Assembly: GCA_035221665.1 (NCBI GenBank) | Contig: CM069174.1 | Coordinates: forward strand, 10,912,001 to 10,976,000 | Direction of reading: 5' to 3' | From: Okamejei kenojei | Lineage: Eukaryota | Length of the DNA stretch: 64,000 nt | In this document: positions 1-57,636 of the stretch, in pieces | Numbering within the stretch: the stretch's first letter is position 1 | Layout of the letters: each line of letters begins with the position of its first letter | Program-made: the position numbers and the translations under genes | Notes under the pieces: generated by a model | Told to the model about the DNA's origin: nothing | The model's database searches: none | The model's input: only the letters and a program-made list of their open reading frames with translations

Positions 1-1340
1 GTTCATGAACTAAACTCCAATGGTTTGTTAAAAGGTCAGTAAACGTAATATAGGAATTGCTGATGATAGACTAGCATGCAAGTCTACAGTCTACAAATTG
101 CTAATGGGCAAAACATTACGTGAAAAATGACTTCGAATTGACACAAAGTCTTCAAAGTGATTGACAATAGACAACAGGTGCAGGAGTAGGCCATTTGGCC
201 CTTCAAGCCAGCACCCGCCATTCAATGTGATCATGGCTGATCATCCCCATTCAGTACCCCGTTCCTGCCATCTCCCCATATCCCCTGACTCCGCTATTTT
301 TAAGAGCCCTATCTAGCTCTCTCTTGAAAGTATCCAGAGAACCGGCCTCCACCGCCCTCTGAGGCAGAGAATTTCACAGACTCACCACTCTCTGTGAGAA
401 AAAGTGTTTCCTCGTCTCCGTTCTAAATGGCTTACTCCTTATTCTTAAACTGTGTGTGGCCCCTGGTTCTGGACTCCCCCAACATCGGGAACGTGTTTCC
501 TGCCTCTAGCGTGTCCAAGCCCTTAACAATCTTTTATGTTTCAATGAGAATCCCTCTCATCCTTCTAAACTTCAGAGTGTGCAGAAATATTTGCAATTTA
601 CACATGACCTGTATCTTAATGATAGATTGCAATCACACACTCATACATACAATCTTTGTTTGTTGGTGTAATTGCAGATTACACATACAAACAGTAACTT
701 AACTATTTGCGACTTGCGTGCAAACTTTAGCTTGAAGTAATGAATTGCGATTTGCACTTTATTTAAAAGCTGAAAATGATTTTGCGACTTAAAGTGCAGA
801 CTACAGCTTAAAATGATGGATTGCAACAGACATGCTGAGTATATTCTAGAAATTGCTGATGAACATTTTACAAAATAAAAGCTGACGTGGAAATGAAATC
901 CATCGCTTAGAAATGTCTGGAGCTTAATATGACACTTTGCAACGTACATATTTGGCCAGTAGCTTAAAATGACCATTTGTAGTTTGGGACTTGTATGAGG
1001 ACCCATAAGTGTAAATTAACAATTTATGATTTGCACATACAAGGAAGATCGCTGGAGTTTAAATTGACTGTTTTCAATTCGCATATTTAAAGTGATCATT
1101 TAGGATTTGCACTTGATCTATAAAGAAAAACTGTTGTTTTGCAAATGACAGGTTAAGATGACAATTTGCAATGCGCAGGAAAATTAAAACTACTATTTGC
1201 AATTTAAATGTATGAAAAGCACAATCAGTTAGCTTAGGATGGCTGTTTGCGACTTACACTTATGAACTTAAGCTAAAAATAACTATTTGCAGCTTGCATG
1301 TACAACCCAAAGTTTAAAATAACTTGTAATCTACAGGTGC
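1..1340. repeat. Degenerate ~38-bp tandem array (rough consensus aaaatgactatttgcaacttacatatacaaactttagctt), interrupted by a CR1 fragment
   Basis: The 'ttgc' core recurs at 707, 745, 782 and 821 (spacing 37-39), each with aaaatgac/agctt flanks. Related units continue to ~1340 and are weakly visible in 1-165. Confidence 0.6.
164..580 (-). mobile_element. CR1/HER1-type LINE 3' fragment with (ctattgt)n tail
   Basis: The minus strand encodes the CR1 ORF2 C-terminal motif (GESRTRGHSLRI...FRTETRKHFFSQRVVSLW) plus 3' UTR. It is near-identical to copies at 21524, 43647, 48108 and 55313. Confidence 0.85.
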
Positions 1341-1991
1341 AAATCTAATTATTCCCCCAAGATTACTTTGCTCCTTCTGCAGCAAACATTTAACACATTC
1401 TTATTTCCTCCTTTACTTTTCTCTTTCTGTACAAGCTATTTAATATTTATGGAACTGCTGGAATTCAAGCTGGATCTAACCAAGTTCGGGGGGGAAAGAA
1501 AATTCCTTTGGTTGTTGCTTACGAACTGTGAGGGACTATATTTTGATGGCACCAGTTGTATCTCGGTATTTCTTTCCTGCTCAGCATGTCAGTAGGATTA
1601 ACTCACTAATGACTAACAGCAGATTAACCATGCTCATAAAACGAACTGACTGCACAGGTTGGTAGTTGATGATAATCAGTCAAGTTTTTTTGTTTTGTTT
1701 ATCCTCTTGCTCTCTTGAATAGTTTTATACGAAACTGCTCTAACTTGCATGACTGAGATATGATTTCCAAAAAAGAATCTCACCAAACGAGATATAGATA
1801 AAGCTCCATTAGACATCACCTCTCCAGTAAAGACACATCCCTTCTGCACCATAGTTGCTGGCCAATGTCCTTTCACTACAGACAAGGAAGATGCGTACAA
1901 GGTGATGATGAGGGTTCCCAATGGGCTCCATCAAGCCTGGTACAACCATTAGTTGGGAACTACCTCACCCTCTGAAGTATCAGTTAAAGCA

Positions 1992-2132
1992 GGGGGTGGG
2001 AGATTGCAACCTTCACGTGGTCCACCCTGTTTCGACGAATGCAATCAACCCGGCGCGCACAAACAGAAGATCAAATAGAACAAGTTGTCTTACAACTTTA
2101 GGCTGTGCACGCCACACGCAAGAAGGAGAAGA
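1992..2132 (+). mobile_element. Short non-autonomous retroelement (Vingi/Ingi- or RTE-like SINE) with 5' ribozyme and (GAA)n tail
   Basis: Exact 10-bp flanking direct repeat AGTTAAAGCA (1982-1991 and 2133-2142); purine tail caagaaggagaaga; structured 5' and 3' halves. The family name is an inference. Confidence 0.8.
1993..2046 (+). ncRNA. HDV-like (CPEB3-type) self-cleaving ribozyme with minimal P4
   Basis: P1 GGGGUGG(1993-1999)/CCACCCU(2022-2028) with a G.U wobble at G1; P2 GAUUGCA(2002-2008)/UGCAAUC(2040-2046); P3 ACC/GGU; L3 UUCACGU; GU after P1'; UUCG mini-P4; catalytic-position C2036 followed by GAA. Confidence 0.85.
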
Positions 2133-2799
2133 AGTTAAAGCATGAATGATAATCCTGTAACTTTGATGAAAGTGCATGGCACATTCTGCCTAAAAGGTGG
2201 TGATTAAATCCAGAAACACGATGAGGATGCAACTGTTGAGGGCTTTCTCGTTGGCCTCCACAGCCATGGTTGTAGAGAGTTGACTTGTTCTTCTACAAAC
2301 CATCTGCCTAATATCTCCTTTTCAGGCACCAGGAGAGGTTGCACAAGGTGTCAGGCCACGTGTGGGGGTGAGATGCTCCTGAGCTGTAATTATTGGTAAA
2401 TCTACCTATAGAGAAGTAAGGTAGACTTGATGCCTACCAAGGTGTAATGTGTCCCTGTGTGCTACGATCACTGCCAGCCAACAAAAGCTTTGAAGTCTGC
2501 ATCCAACAGGAAAATTGATCGCCCCCCAATGCAAGCAGTCTATCCAATTTGGCAACATTAGCTTTGTATTATTGCGTCAAAATATCAAGTTGCATGATGT
2601 TGTTGGTGAGAGAATGCTGCTCTGCACTTCTCTCAGTTTTGCCAATATGCTGCGAATCTCAACTGAAAGCACCGCTCGCTCCATGCAACTATGCAATGAT
2701 TCTGCTCCTATGTGAATGGATTGATGCTGCTTGTTTGCTGCTAGTTGCACCAAATGTCCTTTCAGTCCCAACTGAAGGCAGGCTCAGTAGAAGGTTAGA

Positions 2800-2970
2800 A
2801 AGAAGAAATTGCAGATGCTGGGATCTTGCATAGAACACTAAGTGCTGGAGTAACTCAAGTTGCTCAAGCTGCATCTTCGGAGGACATGTCTAGGCAACCT
2901 TTTGGAGTGGGACCTTTCTTCAGCCTCCAGAGATGCTGCCTGACCTGCCGAGTTACTTCAGCACTTTGTG
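2800..2970. mobile_element. Penelope-derived palindromic element (degenerate)
   Basis: gaaattgcagatgctgg...tgctggagtaactca...cccttcttcag-like...ctccagagatgctgcctgacctgccgagttacttcagcac: inverted arms of the window-wide family. Confidence 0.65.
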
Positions 2971-3054
2971 TATTCAGTAGAAGGTTAGCTGGGAACTGCC
3001 TCATCACGATGCACAGGCAGGCAACCTCTTACTCCTTCCTTTCCTGCCTCATGT

Positions 3055-6000
3055 ATCGTGAAATTACTGCTTCTAGATTTCCCTCTCCACCGAGGCTGCC
3101 TAACTTGCTGAATATTTCCAGCAATATTATTGTTTTTGCTTCACATTTTCAGCATCAGTTTTTCCTTTCTGATGTTACAATGGAAATTACTGCTTCTGAT
3201 AATTTATGGGGGACAGACAAGAAATGGGTAATGATATCACCTGGGAATATAAACTGCAAATGACTGCTTATATTTTATGTTCTTAAAGCTGGAAATTAGT
3301 GTTCAGATATTATGCAATATAGACTGAAAATTATTTCCATTTTTTTTCTGGATGTGCATGGGAAATCATTGCTTCTGACAGTTGATGGACTATAATGTGG
3401 AAATGAATCTTCTTGATATTTTATAGATGATTACCAAGAAATTATTGCTTCAGATTCTTTATGAAGCAGACCTGATACTTTATGAACTAGTAACTAGGAA
3501 TAATTGCTTCTGATACATTATGGGCTTTAAAGGAAAATAAATGCTTCTGAATTTTGTTTGGAATTTACTGTTTATGATATTTTCTGGACTAAGGACAAGA
3601 AAATACTGCTGCTATTTTGTAGAGCAGAAAGAGAAAATTTCTCCTTCCCACATTGCATATACTGCAGTCTGGAAATGACTACTTCGGGATCAGGCTTAGG
3701 GATCAAAAGTTGGAAATTACGCCTTGTATGTTTATGGTGAATCGACTTCCAATAAATGATTTACTTTAGAATGGAAATATTTCATGGCCTAACAACGAGA
3801 TTTTACCACTTCTGATCGAGGAAAGTTGTCCTTTGTTTATTTTAGGGACGAGATATGGGAATTTATTGATGACACATTCTTTGTGCAAAATAAAATACTG
3901 ATATTTAATAGACCAGAAACTACTCATTCTGATATTTTATGGCAGACACTGTTGATTCTGTTATGTTCTAGATTTTAAAGAGGAAATTTACGATGCGAAT
4001 CGAAGCACCAAATTAATGCCATTCACAGTTTAAAGACTAAAAACAGGACATTAATGCTTCTGATATTTTATGGACTAAAGCCTTAAAATGATTGCTTTTG
4101 GTATTTCCTGGCCTGCTGCCTGGAAATAGCTGCTTCTGAGGTGTGCAGACTGTATCCAGCAAATTACTGATTTACCATCCGTACACTATAGACTAGAAAT
4201 TCCTGCTGCTGATAATTTATGGAGTAATGATTAGAAACTGCTGCTTCTGATATTTTATGGACTCAAAACTGGAAATGATGGCTTCTGACACGTAATGGAT
4301 GTTAAATGGGAAATAACTGCCTTTTTTTTGGACTCTAAAGAAATATTGCTTCTGATATTTTATAGACTAAATTATTTAGTTGGAAAAAAGACATCTGATC
4401 ATTTATAAAGAATGGAAATTGAAGCTGCTGATTTTTTTAAGTTAATGGATTAATTGGAAATTGCTGCTTTTGATATTTTATGGATTAATTGCATTAAATG
4501 ACAAGAAATTAGAATTTGCCGTGTCTGACATTTTATGGAGTAAACATTGGAAATCTTCCCTCCCGATACTTTAAGGACTGAAGATAAGAAATTAATGCAC
4601 CTGATATTTTATGGAGTAGAGATTGGAAATTGGCTCTAGTAATAAACAGAGTCAAAAATGTTGAAATACTTTGTGAAATGTTTATGACCAACAATTGGAA
4701 TATTCTGTTCTTTCATTGACTAAAGATTGAAAATTGGCGCTCCTGACATTTAAAAAAACTAGGCATTGGAACTGACTGCTGCTGATATTATATGGACTGC
4801 TGTGTGGAATTTGCTGCTTCTGATGCCAAATGGATAATAAGAAGGAATTTGCCCCTTCGGATACTGCAGAGGTTACTGCTTCTGATCTGAGCTTTAACCA
4901 GAAATTTATGTTTCTAATATGTTATTGACAAAAGACGAGTGGAGACTGCTGATGTTTTATGGACTGAATTGCAAGTTCCTGCTGCTCATATTTTATGGAT
5001 CCCTGACTGTAAATAACTGCATCTGACATTTTGTGGATGATAGACCGGAATTAACTGCTCCCGATACGTGCTGGATAATTGACTGCAGTTTACTGTCTCT
5101 GATATTTTATGCTTTACAGAGAGAACATTACTTCAACTTGTGTTTTACCGATCACAGGACAGAAATGGATGCTTGTAGCATTTCCTGGACAATGCATGGA
5201 ATGTACTGCATCCAGCAATTCACAGACAATGGGTGGGAAATAGTTTCTGATGCTATACAGACTATAGATTACCCATTATGCAGTACAGATTGAACGAAAC
5301 GTTGAAATATTTTACCAACTCTACTGAAAATAATTGCTTCTGATCATTTATTGATCACAGACCAGAAATGACTGCTGTTGACATTGGATGGATGTTGACT
5401 TAGTACACGGGTGCTTCTGATATTGTGTGGACTGTTACTTGGAATTCCAAACTTCAATCCTAGGAATACCCTAAATGTGGAAATGTTTGTATTTTGTGGA
5501 CTGTCATTTGGAAATTAATACTTCAGACATTTCATGGACTATTATTGGACATTACTGTTTCAGGTCTTTTATGAACTTTGGATTGGGCATTACTGCTTTT
5601 CATACTTAATGGAAAATTACTTTCTGATATTACACAGAATGCACTCTATCAATAATTGTGTTTTTATATGTTATGTACTGCATACTGGACATTGTTTGTT
5701 CTGATATTTTACTAACTATGGAGTAGAAATTCCAGCTTCTGGTGTTCTATCTTCTATCTAGGGATCATACTTTATCAATTATTTCATGGAGAAGAAATCA
5801 CACCTTCAATTCTATCATGTTTTACAGAATGAACGTTAAAGACAATTAATTAGTTGACTGTAGATTGGAAATACTACCTCTGATAGCAGAAAGGTTTCTA
5901 AAATATACTCTGGAAATTACTACTGATATTTAATGGATGAGAAGCAGGAAATAACTCCTCCCGAAATGTTATGGGCTATAAACTGAAATTATTGCTTCTG

Positions 6001-7200: not shown

Positions 7201-7984
7201 CTAGAAATTAGGGGCTCAATTTTTGTGAAATAACTTCAGGAGCAATTAGATTACAGTTGCATCTTTCAACCACAAGTTGTATTTTAAAGTACTAGGTATA
7301 AATAATAATTTAAATGGGTGATACAATTACATAGGCTAGAAATTGTGATATCAATAGATTCATTCGTTGTCAATCTTCATTTAATGTGGGGCTGAGGCAT
7401 TAAGATGATTAAATTTAGTCTCTAGGTTTTTTTCAAAGATAGTAATATTCAGATGTGGCTTTTAGTACAGGCATCAATGATGACGATATCAGTTCATTAT
7501 TCTTATTTGTTTTTCAATTTTGAACTCCAGCCGACACCTTATTTGATAAGTTGCTTCTTTAAGTTACCGTTTCTGATTTAACTCCATGCACTGTAGCCCA
7601 GAGATTATCCCTAGTTTTACTGTAGTTTTGGAAAACTTGGAATATTACAACTGCCTGGAGACTGGCTGTGTGGTTGTTAACATGAGATCGCCATCAGGTT
7701 AAAGTGGTGTTTTCAGGTAGATTCCCGCGGAGACAGGTAAGGGGTTGGTCCAAAAATCGCCCCATCGGTGTTACAAAGTGTAGCGCAGTTTGAACCAACC
7801 AGGAGGTTGATGTCACCTGCGAAGAGACATCTTCGACTTTCGGCATAACGGCAGACGCAGTTAAAGATTACAATTGATTGCATGAGGCTTAAACGACCCC
7901 ACCCCCTCCGCCAGTGTGACATTGCCCCCTTGAGCCGTCAACATATTTTCGCCCAGAGTTTGAAGATGGGACAGGGGTACTCAC

Positions 7985-8381
7985 GTTCGGCGGCCATGGT
8001 AATGACAGTTTCAGTCGTGGCGTGATACTCGTCATCTTCCAGAGCAGGCTCTTTGGCTGAGCAGTCATCTCCCTGGATGTCATAGCGGTCGAGTAGTTGC
8101 TGCAACGGGGGAGCTTTAGGCAGGAGCTGATTGACAATGTCCCGGCTGATGTTGGGGGCTTGCTTGAGACGCAGCTTGCTCAGGATCTGGGACTTAATGG
8201 ATTCCAACCTCAGTGCTTTGCTGTGCTCCCTCCATAAACAAGCGGAGCATTCTTGGCTCCCAGGTTCCGCATGGTCTGAGGCGCTCTCTTCTGCCCCCAA
8301 ATCCTTCTCCAAGGCTCGCTCGTCGCTGCCTGTCAATCCTAGAGAGATCAGGAGGCAAAGCAAAACGTGTGGTCTGTGCAT
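7985..8381 (-). CDS. GDF11: Growth differentiation factor 11 (GDF8/11 family), coding exon 1 (signal peptide + N-terminal prodomain); rest of gene lies left of the window
   Basis: [15 protein letters not shown]...[54 protein letters not shown]...[19 protein letters not shown] in accATG context; phase-1 GTGAGT donor at 7984. [15 protein letters not shown] and the ORMDL2/DNAJC14 neighbourhood favour GDF11 over MSTN. Confidence 0.85.
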
Positions 8382-8391
8382 GGTCTGCTGG

Positions 8392-8431
8392 CGTGTGTGT
8401 GTGTGTTTATGTGTGTGTGTATGCGTGCGCG
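8392..8431. repeat. Interrupted (CA)n/(GT)n microsatellite in GDF11 5' UTR
   Basis: cgtgtgtgtgtgtgtttatgtgtgtgtgtatgcgtgcgcg, ending ~10 nt before the ATG. Confidence 0.8.
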
Positions 8432-8543
8432 CCCGCTTGAGAATGGAGAGACGCGCTGGATCCCAGATTACAGCCGGGAGTGAAGAGAGGGCAGAGGGTG
8501 AGACACACGCTGGTGTATGATAACTGATCAACTGGGTCGCCCC

Positions 8544-8627
8544 TTTTTATATTATAACTTTGACCAGAACTATTGCGTCGTAAAAATCTGGGATTGGCTG
8601 AACAGCCAAAGGGGTTTTTGGCTGTCA
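8544..8627 (-). promoter_or_regulatory. GDF11 core promoter: TGACAG (Meis) - CCAAT (NF-Y) - CRE-like - TATA
   Basis: Minus strand: cTGACAGc (8622-8627) ... agCCAATc (8593-8597) ... ttacgacgc ... tcaaagttataaTATAAAAAg (8544-8551), ~160 nt upstream of the ATG. Confidence 0.75.
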
Positions 8628-12714: not shown

Positions 12715-14305
12715 CATAGAACAGTACAGCATAGAAACAGGCCCTTTGGCCCATGATGTCTGCGCTGGCTACAATGCTAATTTAAACTGCACATTTGCTT
12801 GCACACGATCCATACATAGCCTTGCAATCCTTGTCTGTTCATGTGAATGCCTAAATACCTCTTAAACATTGCTATAGTATCTGCTTCCACCACTTCATCA
12901 GGCAGTGTGTTCCACCTACTAACTTCTTCAATCGCCTTTAAATTTTTTGCCTCTCACCTTAAAACTTAGCCCTTTTGTGGATGTGGTATATCTGGACTTC
13001 CAGAAGGCTTTCGACAAGGTCCCACATAAGAGATTAGTATACAAACTTAAAGCATACGGTATTAGGGGTTCAGTATTGATGTGGATAGACAACTGGCTGG
13101 CAAACAGGAAGCAAAGAGTAGGAGTAAACGGGTCCTTTTCACAATGGCAGGCAGTAACTAGTGGGGTACCGCAGGGCTCAGTGCTGGGACCCCAGCTATT
13201 TACAATATATATTAATGATCTGGATGAGGGAATTGAAGGCAATATCTCCAAGTTTGCGGATGACACTAAGCTGGGGGGCAGTGTTCGCTGTGAGGAGGAT
13301 GCTAGGAGACTGCAAGGTGACTTGGATAGGCTGGGTGAGTGGGCAAATGTTTGGCAGATGCAGTATAATGTGGATAAATGTGAGGTTATCCACTTTGGTG
13401 GCAAAAACAGGAAAGCAGACTATTATTTAAATGGTGGCCGATTAGGAAAAGGGGAGATGCAGCGAGACCTGGGTGTCATGGTACACCAGTCATTGAAAGT
13501 AGGCATGCAGGTGCAGCAGGCAGTGAAAAAAGCGAATGGTATGTTAGCTTTCATAGCAAAAGGATTTGAGTACAGGAGCAGGGAGGTTCTACTTCAGTTG
13601 TACAGGGTCTTGGTGAGACCACACCTGGAGTATTGCGTGCAGTTTTGGTCTCCAAATCTGAGGAAGGACATTATTGCCATAGAGGGAGTGCAGAGAAGGT
13701 TCACCAGACTGATTCCTGGGATGTCAGGACTGTCTTATGAAGAAAGACTGGATAGACTCGGTTTATACTCTCTGGAATTTAGGAGATTAAGAGGGGATCT
13801 TATAGAAACTTACAAAATTCTTAAGGGGTTGGACAGGCTAGATGCAGGAAGATTGTTCCCGATGTTGGGGAAGTCCAGGACAAGGGGTCACAGCTTAAGG
13901 ATAAGGGGGAAATCCTTTAAGACCGAGATGAGAAAGACTTTCTTCACACAGAGAGTGGTGAGTCTCTGGAACTCTCTGCCACAGAGGGTAGTTGAGGCCA
14001 GTTCATTGGCTATATTTAAGAGTGAGTTGGATGTGGCCCTTGTGGCTAAGGGGATCAGAGGGTATGGAGAGAAGGCAGGTACGGGATACTGAGTTGGATG
14101 ATCAGCCATGATCATATTGAATGGCGGTGCAGGCTCGAAGGGCTGAATGGCCTACTCCTGCACCTAATTTCTATGTTTCTATGTTTCTATGTTTAATATT
14201 TGACTTTTCCTCTCTGGGGAAAAAAGACTGTGACTATCTACCCTGTCTGCATCTCTCATAACTTTATATACCTCTATTGCGTCTTCCCTCAGCCTCCGTA
14301 GCTCT
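12715..14305 (-). mobile_element. Old antisense CR1/L2 3' fragment split by a young CR1 insertion
   Basis: 12715-12976 (acagtacagcatagaaacaggccctttggccc...) and 14194-14305 (tttgacttttcc...ctatctaccctgtc...ttatatacctctat) are consecutive parts of one LINE 3' end. Confidence 0.6.
12977..14193 (+). mobile_element. Young 5'-truncated CR1 LINE: open RT C-terminal ORF + 3' UTR + (tttctatg)n tail
   Basis: Uninterrupted ORF with VDVVYLDFQKAFDKVPH, GVPQGSVLGP, KFADD, WQMQYNVDKC and RPHLEYC motifs, stop at 14092, octamer-repeat tail 14168-14193. Confidence 0.95.
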
Positions 14306-21523: not shown

Positions 21524-21998
21524 ATAATAGACAATAGGCGCAGGAGTAGGCCATTCGGCCCTTTGAGCCAGCACCGCCATTCAATGTGATCATGGCTGAT
21601 CATCCCCAATCAGTACCCTGTTCCTACCTTCTCCCCATATCCCCTGACTCCGCTATTTTTAAGAGCCCTATCTAGCTCTGTTGAAAGCATCCAGAGAACC
21701 CGCCTCCACCGCCCTCTGAGGCAGAGAATCCCACAGACTCACCACTCTCTGTGAGAAAAAGTGTTTCCTCGTCTCCGTTCTAAATGGCTTACCCCCTATT
21801 CTTAAATTGTGGCCCCTGGTTCTAGACTCCCCCAACATCGGGAACATGTTTCCTGCCTCTAGCGTGTCCAAACCCTTAACAATCTTATATGTTTCAATGA
21901 GATCCCCTTTCATCCTTCTACACTCCAGAGTGTACAAGCCCAGCTGCTCCATTCTCTCAGCATATGACAGTCCTGCCATCCCGGGAATTAACCTTGTA
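21524..21998 (-). mobile_element. CR1/HER1-type LINE 3' fragment
   Basis: ORF 21668-22012(-) RLIPGMAGLSY...MLGESRTRGH...FFSQRVVSLW; tattgtc tail. Confidence 0.9.
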
Positions 21999-22044
21999 GC
22001 TGCTCTGTACACATTGGCAAGCCAGTTAAGAGCCAGGAGTTACA

Positions 22045-41275: not shown

Positions 41276-41414
41276 TATTAAAAATAACAAAATTGAGACA
41301 TTTTGTACTGTCATTCACAATTAGAACATTAGTTAAGGTAACTAGCTCAATATAAATAACTGAATGAGGCAGTTGGACTTTGTCTTTAATTAAATGTTTT
41401 TACACAGAACTTAC

Positions 41415-43253
41415 CAGCACGGCCAACTGCCGATAAGCCTTTTTCAGCTCGGCATCAGTGGCCGTTACCTCCACGCCTAGAACTTTAAAAGGATCCAGCT
41501 CCTCCTCTGGTACATCAGCCATTGCCAACAGTCGGTCAACCTCGTGATCTGGCTGGTACCTATTAGCACTAGGAGACTGGGGCGAAGGAGGCGAAGAAGG
41601 AGACTGGCCCGCAGTCCGCCATTTAGCAGTTAGCCACAATCTCATTTTCAATTTTTCCCACAGTCTTTTCAAATAATTCCAAGTTCTAGATTCTTCTATG
41701 GTGGAGCACAAGTAGTGCAGAAAACAAACAGTTACCGTGTGGGGAAAGTTTTCCTGGCCCCTGATGGGTAACCTCTGAAAAATCATGAAAACACCAGACT
41801 TTGCACATTTGTAGCCAAGTCGTAAGCATCCTATAAATAACATTAGTACTAGAAAAAGCAGAGCAAGCAGCATTTTTAAAAACTTCAGAGTCATCTTCAT
41901 CAAGGAAAGGCAAAACCTCCTCAGCTTCTCAGACCCCAACTTTGCCTGCTTAAGAAGCCACATGCTTGAGGTCCTTGCACTGCCCTTTAAGGAATTAAGA
42001 TCCTCTTTTTGTATCTGGCAACATGAATACACAAATTTGCCACCCATCTCCACATACTCTCCACACTTGTGGGTCACAAACAGAATGACGTCCATTACAA
42101 TTTTGATATAGGTTACACATCTCCAAAGCAGCTCCTCGGTTTGTTTCTGGATTCCAAACTTGAATCTATCCCGATTGTCGGTATGCTGCCGCTTCCTCTC
42201 AGCCTTCGAGTGCCTTTGTTTATTAATGGAAGACTTGCTATTTTTCTTTGTGTGCTCCCTCACATCCTCTTTATCGTAAGCATTTGAAGAGTTCTCTTTT
42301 GTCACCGATTTGTTTCTTTGCCTTTTGCTGCTTTTTCTGTTGGCCAGCTTCACCGGCTGCGTGACATCTTCCGTCACCTTTATGTGGCTTTCGGCCGTGC
42401 TGTCATGTTCATTGAATTCATCACATTTGTCCATTCCATCTTCTTGCGAAGCATTGGCAGAGTGAATGCAGTCCAAGTTGTCAAGAAATGACAGATTGTC
42501 GTCGGTGCTGAATGGGAAGTTGTGGTCTCCGTAGCTTCGGGATTCAAAACACCCGTCCAAAAACATCCGAGTACCTGCGGAGCCTTCCAACGGAGGAATG
42601 GATGACAGGCACCCGTCCTCCTGCGAGTCATTCTCAGTCACACCGTCGCGATTGGTTATTGCATCGGAAAGAGAGTACGGCTTCTCAACACTGGCCAACT
42701 CGGTCTCTCGGTTTTGAAGGTTACATCCCTCACATGACGTGCCGGAACAATAAAGAGGTGGCAGTTTCCCTGTAAAACCCAGCTGTCCACAGGGGAAGCT
42801 CAGCCCTTCCATATCCAACGTCTTCAGCTCCTCGTCTAAACGCTGATCTGAATATGGTTCTTTGTGGTCAAAGCACTTCATGTCACCGAGAGGCCAATCT
42901 GACACGGGCGGACTCTTCCCTGTCTCGGTATTTCTCGCAGGTCGTTGGCTTGTTCTTGGCCAGGTCTGATGACGATGCGATGTGTCGACATGTTCAGAAA
43001 TATACAGATCTGAGTCGATGTTGTCACGTCGTGCACGACAGGAATAATTTGGAAAAACATCCGTTTTTTCATCATGAGGAGAATTGGCAACTGGCCGATT
43101 TATCTGGGCAAACTGACAATGGCTGTGATGGAGCAGTTGGGATGCAACTTGCTGCTCCTCCTCCTCCTCCTCCTCCTCCTCATTCCAGTGGGATTTGTTT
43201 ATTTCTGACCACTGCAAATCACCTTGCCCACCATAGTGATCCTTTCCCTCCAT
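41415..43253 (-). CDS. DNAJC14: DNAJC14 large first coding exon (613 codons; exon acceptor at 43301)
   Basis: Long ORF ending EVDRLLAMADVPEEELDPFKVLGVEVTATDAELKKAYRQLAVL|gtaagt (J-domain start), with a hydrophobic TM-like segment. Spliced CDS is 2538 nt = 845 aa. The start codon is inferred. Confidence 0.9.
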
Positions 43254-43537
43254 TGCAGCTGAATCTCAAGTTACTGGTAATCATGTTTGTTCCATCTTCA
43301 CCTGCAATCAACAAGATATAATCAATGTTTTTAATTCTTCCATTGAAGTAAATACATATAGAATTTCAAATCTTGCAACAATGACATGGTAATAATTAAT
43401 AAAAGCCATCTCACAAATCAATACATTGCATCTATGCACAGTTATTTCCAGATCTACAAATACATAAATAGCCTACCTGCCTTAATGCAAGTCATGAATA
43501 ACATTACAGACACACATCTCTATAAATAACTTCACAC

Positions 43538-55312: not shown

Positions 55313-55625
55313 AAAGACAATAGGTGCAATAGCCATTCGGCCCTTCGAGCCAGCACCGCCATTCAATGTGATCATGGCTGATCATCCCCCATCAGTTCCC
55401 CGTTCCTGCCTTCTCCCCATATCCCGACTCCGCTATCTTTAAGAGCCCTATCTAGCTCTCTCTTGAAAGCATCCAGAGAACCGGCCTCCACCGCCCTCTG
55501 AGGCAGAGAATTCCACATACCCACAACTCTCTGTGAGAAAAAGTGTTTCCTCGTCTCCGTTCTAAATGGCTTACTCCTTATTCTTAAACTGTGGCCCCTG
55601 GTTCTGGACTTCTCCAACATCAGGA
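55313..55625 (-). mobile_element. CR1/HER1-type LINE 3' fragment
   Basis: MLEKSRTRGHSLRIRSKPFRTETRKHFFSQRVVGMWNSLPQ. Confidence 0.88.
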
Positions 55626-57636
55626 ACTTGGTTTTCCAAGATTGCCAAGAAATGCTAAGATTTCCAAGAAATACTGGAGACTTGGAATAAACAGATACCT
55701 TGGCTAACACTGTCCTCTGCTTTGAATGGGAACAGAGGTACTGGGATTAGCTGATGCATGTGTGATGTTTTAGGTCGGGGCTCTTCTTCAGACACACATT
55801 TTGTGTCGGCACCCCGCTTCAGTTCTGAAGGATTTTGACCAGAAACATCATCTATCCGTGTTCTCCAGAGATGCTGCCTGACCTGCGGAGTTACTCTCTT
55901 TCTTGCCAAGAGAGCCGTTTTATTAGCTTTCAAGCTACTATGACGTGGGGGGGGGCTGTAAAAGAATAATTTACAGGGGGAAAAAAAAAAATGGTAACAG
56001 TCCTCTTGATAAAGCCAAATTACTCGGAAGCCAGAGCTTGATCACGTTTCACTGACGAGTGTGTAGCATCTCTTTACAATCTACAAGCTGTTTTTTTATA
56101 CGAACAGGTCATTTTTCATTGGGGAGATAAGAGATCCAGTGATCTTTTAGTTTGGGGCCGGGCTTCACTAAAAACATTTTTTTTTTTTTACACAGGAGTC
56201 TGAGAAACTCATCAAACCTTTTTGAGGCCTAAAGGATGGTTGCTGTACGGAGAACAAAGATTCACAAAGGGACAATTTGAGGGCAAAAAGGTCTATGTTC
56301 AAGGAGAGAGGAGACTTTACTGCATTTAGATTCATTCTTCAAAGATGGGAATTCATGATGATGGAACCGGACAGTCAAGGTACAAAAAATGTTATGAAGT
56401 GTTTCACCATGCATGCAACACCACGACTGACAGAATGCAAGCTGGCGAATCCACCCCACCCCAGCTCATGATTCAATGTGCAGAGGCAAGATCACCTCGT
56501 CTGTTGACGTGAGGAGAAATTGGATAGAATTGACACACCTCAGCCACCGCATTCTTGATTTTATTCCAATATATAAGCCATTTAAATCTGTTGCATGTGA
56601 TAAATACCCTAAGTTACCAGTATAGTCCTTCATCCCGGCAAACACTGCACCCAATAAATATTGAAGTGTGTTTTTTTTTTCCCCTGGAAAATCTGGCTTG
56701 CCTGACATTCTGATTGGGGAACTTCAAACTTTGGTCCATGCAGTAAAATTCTGAGAGATGCAAAAAATATCGCACCTTCCCACAATGAATACACCAGGGA
56801 CGTACTGAAGATTTCAAACAGTGGCCTCGAACAATAAGTTGGATGCTTGTTCAGTGCTAAACTTTGGACATTCTCAGGTAATTCACTTCGACGAGGAAGA
56901 TGAGTAAATTGAGGAAAGTTGATCAAATTCTCAGATGGTCTGAGAGTCGAATCGCTCAGCACAGAAGCAGGCCGTTCTGCCCATCATGCCCATGCCGTCT
57001 ATTGTACTTATCTATAGCAATGCCATTTCCCCACATTTGGCCTGTGGCCTTCCATGCCTCGGAAATTCAAATGCTTGCCTCAATGTTTCTTAAACACACG
57101 TTTCTGCCTCCACCTTCTCGGCTACTGTACTCCAGATTATACCAGGCTCAGAGTTCCTCTACACCTCCTACCCCTTACATCATACACCCTTGTTTTGGAC
57201 ACCCCCAATTTAACTATCTACTGCATTGTCCTCATCCACCAGAAAGCGACAGGCTCAGTGGATCACATCACCTTTTCCCATTGCTTCTTTTAGACTTATC
57301 CGTGTTTCAATTAGGAGCTGGATGCATGGCTGTCATGCAATATAATGAGGCCTTATAATGCTAAGCTACGGAACAAAGAGGTACATTTACTACCTGCCAT
57401 TTCTCCATGCACCCAGTTATCTGCCTCGACGATACAGTCAATGGCAGGTCAGAAACCAATGTCTGCTGCTTCTTTATTCAAAGTTAAAACACAAATAAGT
57501 GTTCTTGCACATCTCCAAACTGCCGGTATGAGGGCAGCTTTGGCAAACACCTGGGAACAGGCTGTTGTCCATTTTTTTTCAGGATGGAGGAAGATAGCAC
57601 ATGCGCAAGAGGATTTAAATGGCACTAGAGCATTAC

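Follow-up and report, generated by a model that had tools for sequence, protein, structure and literature searches.

The window, which is the whole 64,000-nt stretch of DNA analysed, contains a 140-bp insertion. We take this insertion, with a probability of about 0.85, to be a real member of a high-copy family of ribozyme-headed mini-retrotransposons built from the 5' and 3' ends of a Vingi-type LINE; cleavage by the ribozyme is predicted. The features of the insertion and of its host gene are listed in Table 1.

Table 1. Coordinates of the element, its predicted ribozyme and the host gene in the window
Feature	Position	Strand	Basis
5' target-site duplication (TSD), 10 bp	1982-1991	+	exact repeat of 2133-2142
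Spare G between TSD and element, -1 base of predicted cut	1992	+	
Segment homologous to 5' UTR of parent Vingi-type LINE	1993-2065	+	BLAST against full-length L117 and L109
HDV-like double pseudoknot of 54 nt, P4-less, predicted to be cut 5' of G1993	1993-2046	+	descriptor; same architecture in relatives
P1	1993-1999/2022-2028	+	HDV descriptor
J1/2	2000-2001	+	
P2	2002-2008/2040-2046	+	HDV descriptor
P3	2009-2011/2019-2021	+	HDV descriptor
L3	2012-2018	+	
P1.1 G and 6-nt stub replacing P4 (7 nt; relatives 18-38 nt)	2029-2035	+	
J4/2 with predicted catalytic C2036	2036-2039	+	C in 46/47 copies; C-N-A-A in relatives
Clasp 5' arm (long-range 5'/3' helix)	2052-2061	+	
Family-specific middle, including one inner-hairpin arm	2066-2090	+	
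Segment homologous to last ~42 bases of parent LINE (ORF end, 3' UTR, tail)	2091-2132	+	
Clasp 3' arm, directly before A-Y-A-C-G motif	2104-2113	+	
(GAA)n-type tail	2120-2132	+	sequence; parent LINE has same tail
3' TSD	2133-2142	+	exact repeat of 1982-1991
Frame with exon 1 of GDF11-like host gene	7941-8546	-	

The predicted ribozyme head

The initial annotation described a 141-bp insert bracketed by a 10-bp direct repeat. The repeat is exact and does not extend further, and the bracketing by TSDs stands. The length is corrected to 140 bp, because the TSDs of other copies and the loose ends of contigs point to G1993, at the predicted cut, as the start of the element; G1992 is a spare base.

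When both strands of the 64-kb window are searched with an HDV descriptor, a single site is found (1993-2046), and the same descriptor gives no match in 40 order-3 Markov simulations. The head follows the nested order of the HDV double pseudoknot (P1-P2-P3-L3-P3'-P1'-P1.1-(P4)-J4/2-P2'), with a 7-bp P1 and a 3-bp P3, and contains the G1 wobble, the pyrimidine core of L3, the C-G pair of P1.1 and the catalytic C within C-N-A-A. P1, P2, P3, L3 and J4/2 all lie where they were initially placed, and the helices are fully paired in the window. P4 is absent, with 7 nt between P1 and the catalytic C. The UUCG stub varies: 12 of 47 copies have A in place of its G. The recommended search with HDV and CPEB3 models finds no ribozyme at the element. 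Rfam matches neither the HDV nor the CPEB3 ribozyme in positions 1-6000 of the window at E<=5, and gives no ribozyme match in the full-length parent copy L117. A covariance-model match, as a mark of an HDV-like ribozyme, is thus lacking for the window head. Pseudoknot-free MFE folding of the 140 nt yields a long hairpin in the 3' half and scores no better than folding of shuffles (z -0.06). This unremarkable score is expected, because the fold is a short pseudoknot, and the fold is therefore supported by the descriptor and by covariation rather than by energy.

Relatives are encoded at 80 metagenome loci, 28 of which have a scannable 5' region. By the strict scan, HDV folds are present in 6 of these 28 regions, which represent four independent heads (L143, L159/L160/L161, L168 and L180), and in 0 of 71 control regions. 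Most of the metagenome 5' regions without an HDV fold have a missing or degraded 5' end. The head of L145 is degenerate and was parsed by eye. When the window head is compared with the four metagenome heads, 84 of the 85 cells are paired, and 14 of the 17 pairs change on both sides. A later pooled count (132 of 136) was set aside, since the automated parse had chosen an incorrect partner strand for P2 of V4. No HDV fold is detected in the 5' region of L139, a Vingi-type region that forms a terminal helix and a long perfect hairpin without an HDV-type L3 (L139:16-100) and is possibly another kind of structured head. L175, L199, L155, L173, L204, L205, L210 and L215 are set apart as a subgroup by another 3' terminal motif, and the 5' regions scanned in this subgroup give no HDV match.

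Besides the window family, the genome carries the Vingi-type families V2-V4 and the lone, degraded copy L261. All of them begin at the TSD with an HDV-like head of their own. The V2 head reaches 32.1 bits on RF02682, below the 44-bit cut-off. The 5' boundary coincides with the HDV cleavage position in the window family, V2-V4 and L159. Vingi-type copies with their own HDV-like heads and a long P4 are seen at L252, L253, L256 and L267, at L254, L257-L259, L262, L263 and L266, and at L261. A second Vingi-type family of the genome, seen at L260:544-3760 (G000:C313:148600-153100), L251 and L255, combines a complete HDV-like head of 65 nt with a strong 5'/3' helix, and is young, because its copies are 99% alike. 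From these comparisons, Vingi-type heads appear to be HDV-like with strong helix covariation, and this looks new.

The distance from P1 to the catalytic C is 7 nt in the window family and 18-38 nt or more in all relatives. P4 was most likely lost within the lineage of the window family, in a clade that has P4, because all relatives retain this longer distance. The minimal P4-less fold of this predicted ribozyme looks new in its context, the head of a vertebrate retrotransposon. Thousands of predicted minimal HDV-like ribozymes would be placed in a vertebrate genome, where the form is unreported in the literature consulted.

The element family, its parent LINE and the host locus

The genome contains 6,310 exact matches to a 35-nt pattern of the head (3161 forward and 3149 reverse), and the reversed control has 0. 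The window copy is one of many, and TSD-flanked copies are found, which bears out its description as a TSD-flanked retro-insertion. From the top-ranking BLAST matches of the window copy (scored: 40 of 492 and 40 of 222 candidates), 47 distinct near-full-length copies were aligned, which are 88-100% like the window copy; this sample is biased to full-length and similar copies, because the copies were picked as best hits. A scorable TSD of 9-13 bp is present in 41 of the 47 copies. Of these TSDs, 17 are flush with G1, 12 overlap the G-run by 1-2 bases and 12 are separated from the element by 1-2 spare bases. Position 1993 is the commonest 5' loose end among those listed for contigs of four public runs (479, 446, 477 and 76 contigs). 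The copies thus start at the predicted cut, in support of a 5' end defined by the HDV-like head and, indirectly, of metal-dependent self-cleavage 5' of G1. Variable TSDs and a repeat tail common to the element and its parent are hallmarks of target-primed reverse transcription. The predicted catalytic C is kept in 46 of the 47 copies, and all 17 pairs and the core are intact in only 23 of them. The four common variants within the ribozyme lie in J1/2, at a U-A/U.G pair, in the stub and at the N of C-N-A-A. Head-to-tail tandem copies, with a joint from 2125 back to 1993, are observed in runs X5, X6 and X9.

The base at -1 is T in 23, G in 11, C in 9 and A in 4 of the 47 copies. The T before G1 may reflect a target-site preference or selection for a cleavable -1 base. 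G is the least favourable -1 base for HDV cleavage, and its presence at -1 in the window copy counts against the preferred explanation. Only 2 of 9 copies have G as the spare base, which leaves no signature of the cap-G effect known for L1. This absence of a G excess argues against a rather unlikely alternative, in which the head is, or is also, an internal Pol II promoter like Pr77 of L1Tc, with transcription start setting most 5' ends and the ribozyme being auxiliary or slow. The precise 5' end is explained equally well by such a promoter, and Pr77, the nearest precedent, acts as promoter and ribozyme at once in L1Tc and NARTc, according to the available text of PMC3383444. The copies are also dispersed and lie equally on both strands, so that host read-through is not guaranteed. 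However, the catalytic C and the core are kept across families that differ in primary sequence, which a promoter alone would not require.

The parent was searched for with a pattern for the tail without the head, which has 762 matches, 100 of which were listed. This pattern exposed a second upstream sequence, and 16 such loci are 5'-truncated LINE copies. Upstream walking led to the full-length LINE copies L117 and L109 of ~3.05-3.1 kb, which have about nt 1-74 and the last ~42 nt in common with the small element by BLAST; in L117, the TSD abuts G1. The LINE reverse transcriptase that the element was proposed to borrow thus has a candidate source, a LINE with the same head and tail. The autonomous Vingi/RTE-type LINE with both ends that was to be looked for is represented by a ~3.05-kb Vingi-type family with broken copies: all parent copies examined are broken, and no intact ORF is found among the 45 candidates scored. 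A PF14529 search for the parent gives the element in 0 of 30 loci. One copy of the small element, with its own TSD, is nested in the LINE copy L100.

The parent has a single ORF of the APE-RT type without RNase H. Pfam detects pieces of APE, RT and zf-RVT, of which APE and zf-RVT are below the cut-off. P0001, an intact relative of 1019 aa, is 72% identical over the region searched and lacks RNase H, which is present in 4 of the 4 longer neighbours tested. In a 26-row tree, the parent and the ribozyme-headed relatives, with ~1000-aa proteins, are placed in one 100/100 clade. Vingi elements are defined, in the part of PMC13708176 used here, by a compact single ORF with APE and RT, without RNase H, and by a position as sister to RNase H-bearing elements. 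The architecture of the parent fits this definition, and the parent is probably Vingi-type, a label that rests on architecture.

Because its first ~74 and last ~42 bases are shared with the parent, the element is a bipartite non-autonomous LINE, with both ends homologous to one LINE and no ORF. A contiguous source in the LINE was looked for and not found for the middle of the element (2066-2090), one part of which contributes to an inner hairpin (2082-2088 with 2092-2098). A LINE-type 5' UTR pattern has 132 matches, and 19 of the 30 loci fetched belong to a sister family of ~136 bp, in which LINE nt 1-96 is joined cleanly to the last ~40 nt. This family is possibly the ancestor of the window family. 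Sister-family loci are L218, L220, L225, L227-L234, L237-L242 and L244-L246. Further single deletion forms occur among the tail-pattern matches listed. The earlier proposal of a 'ribozyme SINE' is right in that the family is ribozyme-headed and LINE-dependent, but the family is an internal-deletion derivative of a Vingi-type LINE, which is a known kind and not a new SINE class.

The size, TSDs and copy number of the element are those of a SINE, and we considered whether it is a conventional Pol III SINE with a tRNA, 5S or 7SL head that is ribozyme-like by chance. This reading is extremely improbable. Neither a tRNA gene, nor an A/B-box pattern, nor an Rfam small-RNA match is found in the element, which thus lacks the tRNA, 5S or 7SL head with A and B boxes of a Pol III SINE, and the reading is refuted by L117 and L109, in which this head forms the 5' end of the LINE itself.

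Exon positions and domain scores place the element within intron 1 of a GDF11-like gene, in antisense orientation, in agreement with the initial annotation. Exons 2 and 3 are located 4.0-4.5 and 8.2-8.6 kb before the window start, and the mature domain scores 247 bits against GDF11 and 236 bits against GDF8. In runs of three species labels, contigs span the junctions of the element with both flanks, and no empty-site joint at this insertion is found among the joints listed. The insertion predates the split of those species, because the three labels share it at the orthologous site. The window copy is probably an old antisense intronic passenger. Its co-option for regulation of GDF11 or of an antisense transcript is very unlikely: all of its ribozyme pairs are intact and its site is shared by runs of three species labels, but 23 of the 47 copies are just as intact, the shared site does no more than date the insertion, and the element is antisense to the pre-mRNA. 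Elsewhere in the window, fragments of the RT of another LINE type, which we take to be CR1-like, lie at 12923-14092 (+), 21668-22039 (-) and 55372-55746 (-), one of them with a 389-aa frame. A 621-aa exon-like frame at 41400-43265 (-), presumably DNAJC14-like, contains a poly-E run and ends in the start of a J-domain-like motif.

The 5'/3' helix and 5' inversions

In the window copy, 2052-2061 pairs with 2104-2113 to form a helix, termed the clasp, with one mismatch at 2056. This position is T in about 97% of the run depth, which restores the pair. The terminal motif A-Y-A-C-G at 2114-2118 lies directly 3' of the 3' arm, and the two arms are 3 kb apart in the parent LINE. The clasp was tested by one rule for eight families, including the family in which the helix was first noticed, by pairing the 30 nt after P2 with the 32 nt before the tail. 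Cognate 5'/3' pairing over the eight families ranks 1 of 40,320 assignments. In comparison with 500 shuffles, 6 of the 8 families beat all but at most 3, and V3 (68) and L159 (31) fall short of the other six. A narrow anchored test failed for L168 and L117, and the clasp of L168 is recovered by the wider uniform window. When terminal windows are compared with internal windows of the same element, the terminal window ranks first or second in 6 of 10 copies (V2, V4 L266, L109, L143, L145 and L168) and weaker in L159, L117, L258 and L253, in which 4 of 93, 7 of 90, 16 of 91 and 17 of 90 internal windows, respectively, pair as well as the terminal one. The clasp is thus weak in some single copies. 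The base-pairing comparisons suggest that, over eight families, the sequence just downstream of the ribozyme pairs with the 3' end of its own element. Such pairing looks new, as does the clustering of 5' inversions of the parent at this place. The helix would be a concrete, mutable design rule for a LINE clade used in gene writing, in which donor RNAs carry both Vingi UTRs (PMC13708176, in the text available).

Inversions of the 5' end are present in 12 of 45 parent loci, with L092 and L109 left out of the count as ambiguous. The outer inversion end lies at LINE nt 50-110 in 7 of the 12, where a uniform null predicts 1.0 (P about 2.5e-6, for an nt 50-110 window chosen after seeing the data). 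Five of these seven lie at about nt 71-76, just 3' of the clasp 5' arm, and clear TSDs surround the whole insertion in four of the seven. The loci of the sister-family pattern add inversions ending at 107, 108, 183 and 233. In the parent copies L098, L102, L104, L106, L111, L115, L133, L222 and L226, the 5' junction is an inverted ribozyme head that starts at about nt 71-82 or 105-108. In twin priming of L1, the priming site is near the breakpoint; in the Vingi-type inversions, it is often 1-3 kb from the breakpoint, beside the head. This location suggests that the clasp or a bound protein keeps the 5' end at the insertion site. No literature on long-range pairing with twin priming was found.

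Retention of the 5' end at the insertion site would also suit a fold kept mainly as a protective or protein-binding 5' module, acting as an exonuclease barrier or RNP handle, with catalysis being secondary. With R2 templates, insertion is more efficient when a stable HDV-like fold is present, which points to protection against decay from the 5' end (PMC11331408, in part). We regard this alternative as improbable, since the 5' boundary coincides with the HDV cleavage position in the window family, V2-V4 and L159 and the catalytic C is conserved, but it is compatible with the preferred explanation and does not exclude it.

In the preferred explanation, a source copy would be transcribed within a longer host transcript. 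The P4-less ribozyme would cut 5' of G1 using C2036 and leave a folded 5'-OH end, and the 5'/3' helix would close the RNA into a loop that is bound by the LINE protein. Target-primed reverse transcription from the (GAA)n tail would then give insertions with 9-13 bp TSDs. A closed loop would explain both the repeated ends-only derivatives of the parent and the 5' inversions that start just 3' of the 5' arm.

The CPEB3 ribozyme and comparison with known systems

The window head is not CPEB3-like as initially claimed, since it gives no RF00622 match and differs in sequence. The accompanying suggestion that retroelements seed CPEB3-type ribozymes finds support in the relative L159, and not in the window head. 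L159, which lies on a metagenome contig, is a Vingi-type LINE of full length with flanking TSDs. Its head (L159:3117-3189) scores 55.6 bits on the Rfam model CPEB3_ribozyme RF00622 (E 1.4e-12, gathering cut-off 35). L160, which also passes this cut-off, and L161 are the same insertion as L159, and L165 is a clipped family member. The L159 head equals the RF00622 consensus at 45 of 48 non-P4 bases (35 of 37 starting at G1 and ending with the P1.1 G, and 10 of 11 beginning with the catalytic C), and only P4 differs. Other heads with the L159 architecture give no RF00622 match at E<=1, so that the match lies in helix sequence, which is free to vary. The simplest reading is that the L159 head and the CPEB3 ribozyme may share common descent, a reading based on one insertion of one family; convergence or horizontal transfer could also account for the likeness. 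In viral contigs, neither a relative of the parent ORF nor a CPEB3-like head pattern is found. Traces of Vingi are present in the human genome (PMC5753468, in part). The CPEB3 ribozyme is single-copy, sense-intronic and conserved for about 159 My according to the part of PMC8233481 available, in which the words 'origin' and 'transpos' are absent. A retrotransposon origin for the mammalian CPEB3 ribozyme, to which the L159 match points, looks new and can be put directly to the test.

The wider proposal is that Vingi-type elements replicate as closed-loop RNA by means of a self-cleaving head and the clasp, spawn mini-elements and head-primed inversions, reached a 54-nt P4-less minimum and gave rise to the CPEB3 ribozyme. 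We give this proposal an even chance. If it is true, the mammalian CPEB3 ribozyme would have been domesticated from a Vingi head.

That retrotransposition spreads HDV-like ribozymes has already been put forward in general terms (PMC8256844, in part). No Vingi ribozyme, clasp or Vingi source of CPEB3 was found in the literature consulted on Vingi elements and on the CPEB3 ribozyme. The window head shares with the CPEB3 ribozyme the short-J1/2 layout, and its L3 and J4/2 are identical to the RF00622 consensus, whereas its helices are different, P4 is absent and RF00622 gives no match. It shares the P4-less HDV fold with the drz-Mtgn minimal HDV-like and theta ribozymes, which are active in vitro. 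According to the portion of PMC10879173 used for this comparison, nearly 99% of P4-less HDV-like ribozymes are in phages, often beside tRNAs, and a search of bacterial and eukaryotic genomes (human, mouse and protists) gave 12 theta hits only, in bacteria. The window form, in contrast, heads a vertebrate retrotransposon and probably arose by P4 loss in a P4-bearing clade.

The element itself is of an already known kind, the bipartite non-autonomous LINE, represented by NARTc, RIME and the R2 SIDEs. Vingi-1_EE and Vingi-derived SINE bodies belong to the same clade and have the same ends-only structure (PMC5786205, in part). NARTc and RIME, derivatives of L1Tc and Ingi, likewise combine the 5' ribozyme head of a LINE, cut just before nt +1, with its 3' end, are dispersed and have parents from a sister LINE clade, as described in the text available of PMC3383444. 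NARTc is 263 nt long and the L1Tc ribozyme is 77 nt with P4 (PMC3383444), whereas the window element is 140 nt, with a 54-nt ribozyme without P4, a vertebrate host, a (GAA)n tail and a parent without RNase H. In the R2 SIDEs, a 5' HDV-like ribozyme is joined to the parent 3' end by internal deletion and the element is mobilised in trans, as here; these elements are site-specific for rDNA, are called rare and depend on R2 or R1 of the RLE type (PMC3414825, Eickbush and Eickbush 2012, in part), whereas the window family numbers more than 6,000 dispersed copies and derives from an APE-type parent.
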